Assembly: GCF_017348835.2 (NCBI RefSeq)
Contig: NZ_CP071375.1
DNA length: 64,000 nucleotides
Source of the DNA: Escherichia coli
Lineage (GTDB): Bacteria > Pseudomonadota > Gammaproteobacteria > Enterobacterales > Enterobacteriaceae
Reading direction: 5' to 3' (one strand)
Part shown: piece after piece, positions 12,222 through 63,875 of the stretch
Layout of the letters: every line of letters begins with the position of its first letter
How positions within the stretch are numbered: position 1 is the first letter of the stretch
Translations under genes and position numbers: made by a program
The notes under the pieces: generated by a model
The model's database searches: none
Seen by the model: only the letters and a program-made list of their open reading frames with translations
Told to the model about the DNA's origin: nothing

Positions 12222-13763
<1,542 letters not shown>

Positions 13764-22440: not shown

Positions 22441-22470
22441 TTGCCGATAACATTTGACGCAATGCGCACT

Positions 22471-22498
22471 AAAAGGGCATCATTTGATGCCCTTTTTG
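22471..22498 (+). terminator. rho-independent terminator after tufB
   Basis: Hairpin GGGCATCA-TTT-GATGCCC followed by TTTTT. Confidence 0.75.
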
Positions 22499-22669
22499 CA
22501 CGCTTTCGTACCAGAACCTGGCTCATCAGTGATTTTCTTTGTCATAATCATTGCTGAGACAGGCTCTGTTGAGGGCGTATAATCCGAAAAGCTAATACGC
22601 GTTTCGATTTGGTTTGCCTCGCGATCGCGGGGTGAAAATGTTTGTAGAAAACTTCTGACAGGTTGGTTT

Positions 22670-51217: not shown

Positions 51218-52807
51218 TTAATGGCGGAAGTGGCGCATGTCGGTGAAGAGCATCGCAATACCGTGCTCGTCGGCGGCGGCAATCACTTCGTCATCACGGA
51301 TGGAACCGCCAGGCTGGATTACGCAGGTCACGCCCGCAGCGGCGGCGGCATCAATACCGTCGCGGAACGGGAAGAACGCGTCAGAAGCCATCGAGGAACC
51401 TTTCACTTCCAGGCCTTCATCGGCAGCTTTAATACCGGCGATTTTCGCGGAGTACACGCGGCTCATCTGGCCCGCGCCAATACCGATGGTCATATTGTTT
51501 TTGGCATAGACGATAGCATTGGATTTCACGAACTTCGCCACTTTCCAGCAGAACAGCGCATCACGCAGTTCCTGTTCGGTCGGCTGACGTTGGGTGACGA
51601 CGCGCAGTTCTTCCGCACCGACCATCCCCAGGTCACGATCCTGAACCAGCAGACCGCCGTTCACGCGTTTGAAATCAAGACCCGGAACACGCTCGCCCCA
51701 CTGACCGCAGGTCAGAACGCGTACGTTCTGCTTGGCGGCGGTGATTTTCAGGGCTTCTTCGCTGGCGGAAGGCGCAATAATCACTTCGACAAACTGACGA
51801 GAAATGATGGCCTGTGCGGTTTCCGCATCCAGCTCGCGGTTAAAGGCAATGATGCCGCCGAATGCGGAGGTTGGGTCGGTTTTGTACGCGCGATCGTAAG
51901 CATCAAGAATGGAATTGCCGATAGCCACGCCGCAAGGGTTGGCGTGCTTCACAATCACACATGCCGGCTCGGCGAACTCTTTCACGCACTCCAGCGCCGC
52001 ATCGGTATCGGCGATGTTGTTATAAGAGAGGGCTTTACCCTGAACCTGGGTTGCGGTAGCAACGGAGGCCTCTTTCACATTCTCTTCTATATAGAAGGCA
52101 GCCTGCTGGTGGCTGTTCTCGCCGTAACGCATATCCTGCTTCTTAATGAAGTTCAGGTTCAGCGTGCGTGGGAAGCGACCGGCGGCTTCTTTGCTTTCAC
52201 CGTGGTAAGCCGGAACCATGCTGCCGAAGTAGTTGGCAATCATGCTGTCGTAGGCGGCAGTGTGTTCGAAGGCTTTGATGGCGAGGTCGAAACGGGTTGC
52301 AAGCGTCAGCGATCCTTCGTTGTCATCCATCTCTTTAATAATGGCGTCGTAGTCGCTGCTCTTCACCACGATTGCGACATCTTTATGGTTCTTGGCGGCG
52401 GAGCGCACCATCGTTGGGCCGCCGATATCGATGTTCTCAACCGCATCTTCCAGCGAGCAACCTTCACGGGCCACGGTCTGGGCGAACGGATACAGGTTAA
52501 CAACCACCATATCGATAGGCTGGATCTGATGTTCTTCCATAATGGCATCGTCCTGGCCGCGACGGCCCAGAATGCCACCATGTACTTTCGGATGCAGGGT
52601 CTTCACGCGTCCATCCATCATCTCTGGGAAACCGGTGTAATCGGAAACTTCGGTTACCGGCAGACCTTTTTCTGCTAACAGACGGGCAGTGCCCCCTGTA
52701 GACAGCAGCTCCACACCGCGTGCGGAAAGTGCCTGGGCGAATTCGACGATACCGGCTTTGTCAGAAACACTGAGCAGAGCGCGGCGGACTGGACGACGTT
52801 GTTGCAT
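51218..52807 (-). CDS. purH: bifunctional AICAR transformylase / IMP cyclohydrolase (529 aa)
   Basis: [41 protein letters not shown]. Confidence 0.95.
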
Positions 52808-52914
52808 GGTAAATCCCCTGGATTTGACTATTACAGAGAGCGTTAGCTGAATTTTTCGCGAAAAACTCAGCTAACGCCCCTAACGGGGCATCCTTATTTT
52901 TCGCTCGCATTGTA

Positions 52915-52930
52915 ACGAAAACGTTTGCGC
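52915..52930 (-). promoter_or_regulatory. PurR operator (pur box) of purHD
   Basis: Minus strand GCGCAAACGTTTTCGT, 14/16 match to ACGCAAACGTTTTCTT. Confidence 0.7.
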
Positions 52931-53101
52931 AACGCTCGCGAATTTTTCTCTTTCAATGGTGATCACAATTTTGACAGTGGTTACCGTGGGAAAAATACAG
53001 AAATTACATTGATGATTGTGGATAACTCTGTGCGTAAAAAGGTATAAAGCGGGCTTTTGCTGGGGAATGCAGCAGTCAGTCATTTTTCAGCAATTTTTCT
53101 A

Positions 53102-53290
53102 TTGCGGCCTGCGGAGAACTCCCTATAATGCGCCTCCATCGACACGGCGGATGTGAATCACTTCACACAAACAGCCGGTTCGGTTGAAGAGAAAAATCCT
53201 GAAATTCAGGGTTGACTCTGAAAGAGGAAAGCGTAATATACGCCACCTCGCGACAGTGCGCTAAAGCGCGTCGCAACTGCTCTTTAACAA
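53102..53290 (+). promoter_or_regulatory. rrnE-type promoters P1 and P2 with boxA
   Basis: P1 TTGCGG (53102-53107) / TATAAT (53124-53129); P2 TTGACT (53212-53217) / TAATAT (53234-53239); boxA TGCTCTTTAACAA at 53278-53290. Confidence 0.8.
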
Positions 53291-53421
53291 TTTATCAGAC
53301 AATCTGTGTGGGCACTCGAAGATACGGATTCTTAACGTCGCAAGACGAAAAATGAATACCAAGTCTCAAGAGTGAACACGTAATTCATTACGAAGTTTAA
53401 TTCTTTGAGCATCAAACTTTT

Positions 53422-54963
<1,542 letters not shown>

Positions 54964-62861: not shown

Positions 62862-63875
62862 TTAGAGGTCGATTAAAATTTTGGTGAATGCGCCGGGATC
62901 GGCGGCCCAGTCGCTGAACGCCCGATCGGCAGTATCAATCGGGTAGTGCGCGGAAATAATTAGCTCAATGGGGTAGCACTGCTTTTCCATTAAAGAGAGA
63001 ACTGCTCTGAAATCGGCAACGGTGGCGTTGCGGGAACCACGGATATCCAGCTCTTTCATGAGGAAGCGCGCGCTCTCATAATTCACCGGTTTTTTCGCAT
63101 AGCCGACGTACACCACGCGCCCGCAGAAGGCAGCCAGCTCGACTGCCTGCTCGATGGTTTTATCCAGGCCAATGGCTTCAATCACCACCGCAGGACCGCG
63201 GTCTTCGTTCAGTTTCGCCAGGATCTCAGCAACATTTTCGCGTGCGCTGTTGATATACCTTTCGGCACCACATGCCTTCGCTACCGCCTGCTTACGATCG
63301 TCGATATCAATGGCTACCACGCGACCGCCCATCGCGTTAGCTGCTGCAATAGCGCCAAGACCAATCACGCCGCAGCCCATAACGACGACCCATTCGCCAA
63401 CATTGATTTGCGCCCGGCGCGCAGCGTGAAGACCAACGGCTAATGGTTCGACTAACGCCAGTTCGTCACTGGAAAGGGAATTACAGACAATGACTTTATT
63501 GGCCGGAATAGACAGCAGCGGCACCATACCGCCCTGGCGCTGAACGCCAAGAGTCTGGTTGTTTTTACAGGCATTCGGGCGACCGCTCAGACAGGAACTG
63601 CAATGACCGCATTCGGTACAGGGCAGAACAACAACACGATCGCCTTCCAGAATATGTTTAACCTGGCTGCCTGTTTGCAGGATCTTGCCGCCGATTTCAT
63701 GACCGGGAATGCAAGGATACTGCGTGAGGGGATTTAGCCCGCGCCAGGTATTTAAATCTGAACCGCATAAACCAACTCGTTCAACACGAATTAATACATG
63801 GTCGGCTGGGCAATCAGGTTCGGCGATATCAATAAATCGCGTTACGGAACCTTTATCAATGGCTAACGCTTTCAT
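62862..63875 (-). CDS. Zn-dependent medium-chain dehydrogenase (sorbitol / L-idonate dehydrogenase-like), about 337 aa
   Basis: Catalytic Zn ligands (GLCGSDL...GHEIGG) and structural Zn cysteines (CTECGHCSSC); likely start MKALAIDKG at 63875, ORF-track start 63956 is an extension. Confidence 0.82.
   Translation of the reverse strand: MKALAIDKGSVTRFIDIAEPDCPADHVLIRVERVGLCGSDLNTWRGLNPLTQYPCIPGHEIGGKILQTGSQVKHILEGDRVVVLPCTECGHCSSCLSGRPNACKNNQTLGVQRQGGMVPLLSIPANKVIVCNSLSSDELALVEPLAVGLHAARRAQINVGEWVVVMGCGVIGLGAIAAANAMGGRVVAIDIDDRKQAVAKACGAERYINSARENVAEILAKLNEDRGPAVVIEAIGLDKTIEQAVELAAFCGRVVYVGYAKKPVNYESARFLMKELDIRGSRNATVADFRAVLSLMEKQCYPIELIISAHYPIDTADRAFSDWAADPGAFTKILIDL

Follow-up and report, generated by a model that had tools for sequence, protein, structure and literature searches.

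A long hairpin maintained by compensatory change in the predicted purHD leader of Escherichia coli and its relatives

The purH upstream region

The 64,000-nucleotide stretch of Escherichia coli DNA analysed here, which we call the window, carries purH on its minus strand, divergent from the 16S rRNA gene rrsE. Between the purH start codon and the PurR box of the purHD promoter, both of which lie where a first-pass annotation of the same DNA had placed them, are two overlapping dyads (Table 1). The larger had been described in that annotation as a 38-nt near-perfect palindrome with 17-nt arms, a CGCG centre and one mismatch, and our inverted-repeat search returned exactly this, reading GCGTTAGCTGAATTTTTCGCGAAAAACTCAGCTAACGC; equivalently, the arms can be taken as 19 nt long, 95% complementary and without a spacer. 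On the purH-sense (minus-strand) RNA the single mismatch is a G.U wobble, and on the plus strand it is A.C. The palindrome ranks top among the short-range inverted repeats of the window, being both the longest and the most perfect, and its 19-nt arm, with up to three mismatches allowed, matches within the window only at the palindrome's own two arms (0.06 matches expected). The runner-up, at 22461-22506 (22-nt arms, 82% complementary, AATGCGCACTAAAAGGGCATCA / TGATGCCCTTTTTGCACGCTTT), is probably a terminator. A second hairpin had been reported to follow the palindrome immediately. It is indeed present, as GCCCCTAACGGGGC, of the form GCCCC-N4-GGGGC, but rather than following the palindrome it shares 2 nt with it.

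Table 1. Features between the purH start codon and the PurR operator in the window
Feature	Position	Strand	Basis or remark
purH start codon	52805..52807	-	ORF 51218..52807 and RefSeq purH annotation
Small hairpin AAAUCC-AGG-GGAUUU around the Shine-Dalgarno sequence AGGGGA (52814-52819)	52811..52825	-	predicted fold
Invariant UCU	52837..52839	-	can pair with GGG 52878-52880, which extends the long stem to 20 bp with loss of hairpin 1
Long stem-loop (the 38-nt palindrome), 17 bp and CGCG loop, about +26 to +63	52840..52877	-	fold and covariation
Hairpin 1, GCCCC-GUUA-GGGGC, about +14 to +27	52876..52889	-	conserved GC-rich hairpin
A-rich single-stranded 5' segment, ending AAGGAU	52890..52900	-	unpaired in predicted folds
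Putative transcription start	52901..52902	-	7 nt 3' of the -10 hexamer; 5' UTR of about 95 nt
Putative -10 hexamer of the purHD promoter, TACAAT	52909..52914	-	adjoins the PurR box directly
PurR operator (PurR box) of purHD, ACGAAAACGTTTGCGC	52915..52930	-	identical 16-mer given as the purH-purD PurR site in PMC3159470

The putative -10 hexamer was missed by a simple sigma-70 scan because the -35 is poor. It reads TACAAT, TAAAAT or TAGAAT in Enterobacterales and TATAAT in Aggregatibacter, and the layout of PurR box and hexamer is kept in the Enterobacterales purH loci fetched, with the exception of Yersinia thracica, which has no PurR box within 300 nt. Since both dyads lie 3' of the PurR box and the hexamer, we infer that they are transcribed, at approximately +14 to +63. 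The earlier suggestion that the palindrome could belong to the purHD 5' leader is thus supported by promoter anatomy, from which the start itself is taken, purH not being listed in the transcription start site (TSS) datasets examined.

Within this leader, the segment 5' of hairpin 1 is variable except for an (A/C)AAGGAU motif found in many Enterobacteriaceae and in Pantoea. The Shine-Dalgarno hairpin is kept in Escherichia, Citrobacter and the Enterobacter group, with a varying loop base; it is absent from the leaders of Pantoea, Serratia and Yersinia, where CAAAGCCAAGGGAUAAAACC is found instead. GGA motifs lie on both sides of the hairpins on the minus strand, as (A/C)AAGGAUG at 52890-52895 and as AGGGGAU at the Shine-Dalgarno sequence, and the first of these we take to resemble the CsrA SELEX consensus, which is ACARGGAUG. 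A CsrA-regulated leader is recognised by at least two GGA motifs, one of them at the Shine-Dalgarno sequence, and by demonstrated CsrA binding; we found no paper that ties CsrA to E. coli purH. A leader peptide was considered and rejected: the sole AUG of the leader opens AUG-CCC-CGU-UAG and, as judged by eye, is unspaced from its GGA, and an AUG-UAA in the 3' arm occurs in Erwiniaceae only. The leaders of Yersinia nurmii (L031), with 293 nt from PurR box to ATG, and of Y. thracica (L037) are far longer, and both have additional sequence between promoter and hairpin 1.

Copy number and tests of identity

The 181 bases around the palindrome were found in 5419 of 5426 complete E. coli genomes, upstream of purH and divergent from a 16S rRNA gene, and the 61-nt palindrome region is at least 99% identical in 5332 of those 5419. 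In the one variant genome that was aligned, which has two differences from MG1655, one change lies in the loop and the other in the single-stranded segment upstream, and the window differs from both MG1655 and this variant by one base near the putative start, outside the stems.

The first-pass annotation had also raised the possibility of a REP-like element. REP (BIME) sequences are expected as many dispersed copies that share a consensus. The 61-nt query matched a median of two places per genome across the 5419 genomes, which we read as one palindrome matching on both strands and hence as a single-copy element; the arm is unique in the window, and MG1655 has no repeat feature annotated at the palindrome. 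The element is therefore not REP-like, and copy number together with the MG1655 annotation rules that possibility out.

A cmscan search of 52000-54000, with E-values up to 10, returned no Rfam family at the leader, the ZTP (pfl) riboswitch and the purD motif included, and the sole match on the hairpin was a chance one to mir-725 (23.8 bits against a gathering score of 76). On the plus strand, 53069-53300, which takes in the promoter and leader of rrnE, matches the Yersinia sRNA Ysr197 below threshold (118 bits; gathering score, 167), and this family may be no more than an rrn leader. The 9-mer AGCTAACGC of the hairpin's 3' arm has five matches in the window against 0.43 expected, among them one in rrsE (54281-54289) and others at 13081-13089 (+) and 63334-63342 (-). 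Mimicry of 16S rRNA through the shared AGCUAACGC (rrsE 54281, plus 13081 and 63334) was considered and set aside as a 9-mer coincidence. Our search of the literature (RNase III maps, Term-seq, TSS maps, p19 dsRNA capture, CsrA and the PurR regulon) found nothing on the purHD leader.

For a sense-strand intrinsic terminator we looked for at least five U in eight nucleotides after a G+C-rich stem. The tail of the E. coli group, UCUCUGUA, has four in eight, and a terminator scan made no call on the minus strand at the long hairpin. A borderline five or six U in eight is seen in most Serratia, Pantoea, Erwinia and Rahnella leaders, and the long hairpin is at best a weak terminator. On the plus strand, GCCCCTAACGGGGC followed by ATCCTTATTT was flagged as a terminator in E. 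coli, but the T-run is gone in Citrobacter, Serratia and Pantoea, and this candidate too was rejected. A transcription attenuator or pause site, at which the long hairpin and a U-rich tract would halt a fraction of the polymerases before purH, is consistent with the invariant UCU and the U/A-rich tract that follow the hairpin, and with the U-richer tails of the four genera just named. However, the E. coli-group tail has only its four U, its proximal triplet is UCU and not UUU, the stems are long and A/U-rich, unlike those of typical intrinsic terminators, and to the missing minus-strand call can be added the absence of purH from the Term-seq supplementary files of PMC7815308 that were examined. 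We regard attenuation as improbable.

Conservation and covariation

Eighty purH loci, with one genome per species, formed the comparative sample. A hairpin on the same base (GCGUUA-S-CUGA ... UCA-S-S-UAACGC) occurs in 39 purH leaders, which come from Enterobacteriaceae, Erwiniaceae (Pantoea, Erwinia) and Yersiniaceae (Serratia, Yersinia, Rahnella), and from Brenneria in degenerate form. Mangrovibacter has a long hairpin whose sequence is different already at the base, with UCU again after it; the base was fitted by eye, and this hairpin was excluded from the covariation counts. The long hairpin of Tatumella is unrelated. Among the purH loci fetched, the motif is absent from Photorhabdus, Budvicia, Edwardsiella, Rosenbergiella and Acerihabitans, and also from Vibrio, Aeromonas, Pasteurellaceae and Orbaceae. 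A covariance model (R1, built on 18 leaders) found matches restricted to purH leaders, both in the window and in all the loci.

The hairpin spans 38 to 102 nt, with a tip that ranges from 4 nt to more than 60 nt and is free in both sequence and length, and the orthologous hairpins fold in every case (z from -2.5 to -14.5; Brenneria, -0.4). Expanded tips were seen in Yersiniaceae and Erwiniaceae (L031, L033, L035, L036, L037, L039, L040, L041) and consist of one or two CUCUAUAUAGAG-like palindromic units, with the 5' arm consistently pyrimidine-rich and the 3' arm purine-rich. Photorhabdus caribbeanensis (L044), which lacks the hairpin motif, has an inserted segment, …GAATCCCTGGGAGCATAGCGAACTATGTGACCAGGGTGAGTGCAGCCAACAAAGAGGCAACTTGAAAG…, approximately 100-200 nt upstream of purH; this segment is missing from P. 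cinerea (L047), and it presumably resembles an ERIC/IRU repeat. Pantoea and Tatumella likewise have a divergent 16S rRNA gene on the upstream side of purH (L026, 1-571; L034, 1-580), and the contigs of Enterobacterales mostly stop 150-700 nt upstream of this gene; the association of purH with rrn is therefore conserved across the order.

Base pairs were counted after the 16 basal positions of each arm had been aligned without gaps, with arm constructs of the 39 leaders as input, since covariance-model alignment was contaminated by the palindrome's reverse-strand self-hits. Across these 16 pairs, 87.5% of cells are paired, compared with 78.8% in shuffles, and changes on both sides occur in 10 of the 16. 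The covariation score was 0.298, as against 0.148 in shuffles, and was reached by none of 500; in all, none of the 500 shuffles reached the observed value for four of the five measures, and one did so for further pair types. When the partner was slid by 1-3 columns as a control, 30-41% of cells were paired. Individual positions illustrate the pattern: pair 7 occurs as GC (14), CG (10), UA (3) and UG (2), and pair 12 as AU (15), GU (12) and GC (3), while Yersinia thracica has a fully compensated 28-bp form of the hairpin. Pair 8 has a conserved C that is mismatched in 18 of 30 distinct sequences, and pair 10 is a G.G in Erwiniaceae; both pairs are Watson-Crick in E. coli. The basal 11-13 bp of the long stem are near-invariant in sequence. 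Across the orthologues, compensatory changes preserve the pairing of the long stem, and the check that the first-pass annotation had proposed, conservation of the dyad with compensatory changes, thus came out in its favour.

These counts bear directly on the idea that the palindrome is a neutral leftover, either a decaying insertion or a chance repeat that does nothing. The tip of the hairpin expands and contracts freely, as such a relic might; yet changes on both sides keep its arms paired across four families, and within E. coli the element, taken over 61 nt, is invariant to the extent given above. We therefore consider neutrality most improbable.

Hairpin 1 has an equivalent in 37 of 40 species (defined as at least three predicted pairs and -2 kcal/mol or lower). 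It usually has 4-6 pairs and is GC-rich, the changes in its stem include CCUC/GAGG and CCCG/CGGG, and it adjoins the long hairpin or overlaps it by 0-2 nt.

RNA or DNA, and which strand

On the purH-sense strand, G.U pairs number 26 as against 14 A.C, and the sense fold is the more stable one in approximately 31 of 41 species, the antisense fold being better in approximately 10 (Serratia, Rahnella, Brenneria and others). This is a modest bias, in large part inherited. A sense RNA is argued for more strongly by the position of the element 3' of a conserved promoter, and by the variable arm distance, the bulges and the large loops of the orthologues. Because the distance between them varies, the conserved arms are united only by folding.

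At the DNA level, the palindrome might be a cruciform that absorbs negative supercoiling between the purHD and rrnE promoters, or a palindrome bound by a LacI-family protein such as RbsR or Cra. The E. coli sequence is a near-perfect repeat around an A/T-rich centre, and either DNA strand can fold (-16 to -18 kcal/mol, z of about -5); GCTGAA in the arms has what we take to be a likeness to a Cra half-site. The divergent synteny of purH and 16S rRNA, kept in Pantoea and Tatumella too, also fits such an element, as does the repression of purHD by RbsR that PMC5601083 attributes to Shimada 2013. An operator of this family (PurR, RbsR or Cra) needs a palindrome of 16-20 bp with a fixed half-site spacing around a central CG, whereas here the spans vary from 38 to 102 nt and the arms are 4 nt to more than 60 nt apart; the variable spacing therefore excludes a transcription-factor operator. 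The remark of the first-pass annotation that the arms are too long for such a site accordingly holds, and spacing between species adds to it. LacI-family operators read AAAC|GTTT, and the central TTTTCG|CGAAAA is opposite in polarity. The PurR box itself, which sits 38 bp upstream of the palindrome, is the better RbsR-like site. Moreover, the bulges, large loops and G.U pairs of the orthologues would be intolerable for a cruciform or for a dimeric DNA-binding protein. A function in the DNA is thus very improbable.

Predicted folds and the junction between the helices

The E. coli leader RNA folds with z = -4.4 relative to shuffled controls, and the long hairpin by itself reaches -22.5 kcal/mol (z = -6.1), in keeping with the very stable stem-loop that had been anticipated for this leader. 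For the region from -14 to +3, predicted accessibility was 0.51 in the wild type; deleting the hairpin gave 0.50 (not significant) and shuffling it gave 0.46. As predicted accessibility is equal whether the hairpin is present or deleted, we rejected a direct occlusion of the ribosome-binding site. The leader module is predicted to fold autonomously and to leave the ribosome-binding site as accessible as it would be without the hairpin.

The two helices meet at a run of G residues. The long stem is followed on its 3' side by UCU in 39 of 39 sequences and preceded on its 5' side by GGG in 33 of 36. RNAalifold favours the GGG/UCU extension, and so a 20-bp long stem, over hairpin 1. Partition-function folds gave mean values of 0.44 for the extension, 0.37 for hairpin 1 and 0.93 for the core of the long stem. 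These models suggest a conserved bistable junction in which the G-run would pair either with the CCC of hairpin 1 or with UCU. The extension pairs never vary, and for that reason carry no covariation evidence. Flannigan et al. reportedly noted in 1990 that the 5' end of the purHD mRNA has two dyads, of which the formation of one prevents that of the other; these are probably the same two overlapping dyads that we describe. If so, that account fits the present anatomy, and the dyads were noticed long ago and never characterised; our literature search found no analysis of their function, conservation or covariation.

Mutually exclusive helices invite the reading that the leader is a regulatory switch or binding site, in which the stem base and the bistable GGG junction are recognised by a protein, a small RNA or a metabolite independently of PurR. 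Several observations point this way: the stem base and UCU are invariant over four families while the tip is free, the alternative helices are near-isoenergetic in most species, the dyads are reportedly exclusive in the 1990 account, and the conserved C of position 8 is often mismatched, with a G.G at pair 10 in Erwiniaceae. On the other hand, we know of no candidate partner for the purHD leader, the Rfam search matched no model, a plain helix with a free tip is atypical as a ligand pocket, pairs 8 and 10 are ordinary in E. coli, and the invariant extension pairs are silent on covariation. We consider recognition of this kind rather unlikely. A more specific version, that the purHD leader is an unrecognised regulatory RNA switch, with two exclusive helices that share the G-run and are toggled by a purine-pathway signal, is a speculation to which we give little credence; the toggling signal may be ZMP/ZTP, the nucleotide pool or a dedicated RNA-binding protein. 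Were it true, the consumption of AICAR would be under PurR-independent, post-transcriptional control in a lineage without a ZTP riboswitch.

Discussion

We consider it very probable that the palindrome upstream of purH is a selected leader RNA structure. With less than even confidence, we suggest further that both dyads form an evolutionarily maintained RNA module in the 5' UTR of purHD, one that would set the fate of the mRNA in cis; this proposal builds on a putative start, a presumed RNA strand and a presumed decay barrier. As to mechanism, a structural barrier to 5'-end-dependent decay is possible, and we put it forward tentatively. The GC hairpin of 5 bp, adjoining a long stem-loop of 17 bp (20 bp when extended), would stand as a stable barrier that separates the single-stranded 5' end from the translation-initiation region. 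Acting in cis and after PurR-controlled initiation, the module would restrict 5'-end-dependent endonuclease attack by RNase E, and in this way it would most likely fix the fate of the purHD mRNA.

Stabilisers of the classical 5' type lie no more than a few nucleotides from the 5' end. If the putative start is correct, approximately 13 nt precede hairpin 1, which counts against reading the module as a stabiliser of the classical kind. Moreover, the near-invariance of the basal 11-13 bp and of UCU exceeds what a steric barrier needs and hints at a specific partner or at an alternative pairing.

The purHD operon is a textbook example of PurR regulation, usually presented as controlled by transcription alone. 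The preservation of a leader structure by compensation, from Escherichia as far as Yersinia and Pantoea, implies that there is a second layer, a post-transcriptional one. PurH consumes AICAR (ZMP), a signalling metabolite that other bacteria sense by a riboswitch before purH. Even if the hairpin were a mere stability determinant, it would offer a clean single-copy element with which to test the effect of 5'-UTR structure on mRNA lifetime in E. coli, and those who engineer purH should keep or remove it deliberately.

The element is unannotated, and its kind is familiar: that of a conserved 5'-UTR stem-loop. Like a REP (BIME) sequence, it is an imperfect intergenic palindrome of about 35-40 nt; unlike one, it is single-copy and without the REP consensus, belongs to a predicted 5' leader where a REP sequence would sit at a 3' end, and has orthologues in several genera. 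With the ZTP (pfl) riboswitch of other bacteria it shares the form of a structured leader before purH, in a lineage without that known riboswitch, and it differs in having no similarity to the Rfam model and no pseudoknot or conserved loop, being a plain helix with a variable tip.

RNase III cuts the leaders of pnp, rnc and adhE, triggering decay or activating translation. Like those substrates, the purHD stem, placed by prediction in the 5' UTR ahead of the ribosome-binding site, is long, near-perfect double-stranded RNA, and we have weighed the possibility that RNase III cuts the extended 20-bp stem and takes away the 5' part of the leader, leading to decay or to activation of translation. 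The helix is conserved while the sequence above it varies freely, and it reaches 28-34 pairs in some species, against the approximately 22 bp that RNase III is reported to accommodate (PMC6212723). Known substrates have about 22 bp or more, however, and the 17-20 bp of the E. coli-type stem fall below the canonical two turns; many orthologues, in addition, are mismatched at pairs 8 and 10 and interrupted by large internal loops. In the part of the RNase III map of PMC5371410 examined, the purHD leader is not listed and the sole site reported in the purH-rrsE spacer is an rRNA-leader site, 4207874, a weak argument in that purH is repressed in rich medium. Processing by RNase III is unlikely in our view, though the invariance of the stem base and of UCU, taken with the bistable junction, makes it, like a switch or a specific partner, worth keeping in mind.

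The barrier that we favour has its closest parallel in the 5'-UTR stabilising stem-loops of enterobacterial mRNAs, of which the ompA leader hairpins are an example, and in structural obstacles to RNase E access. The purHD leader differs from these in the unpaired stretch before its first hairpin and in the conserved sequence of its stem base and 3' UCU. Like them, it has a hairpin, predicted to be stable and autonomous, between the putative 5' end and the ribosome-binding site, and what is conserved in the hairpin is its structure and not the sequence of its tip.
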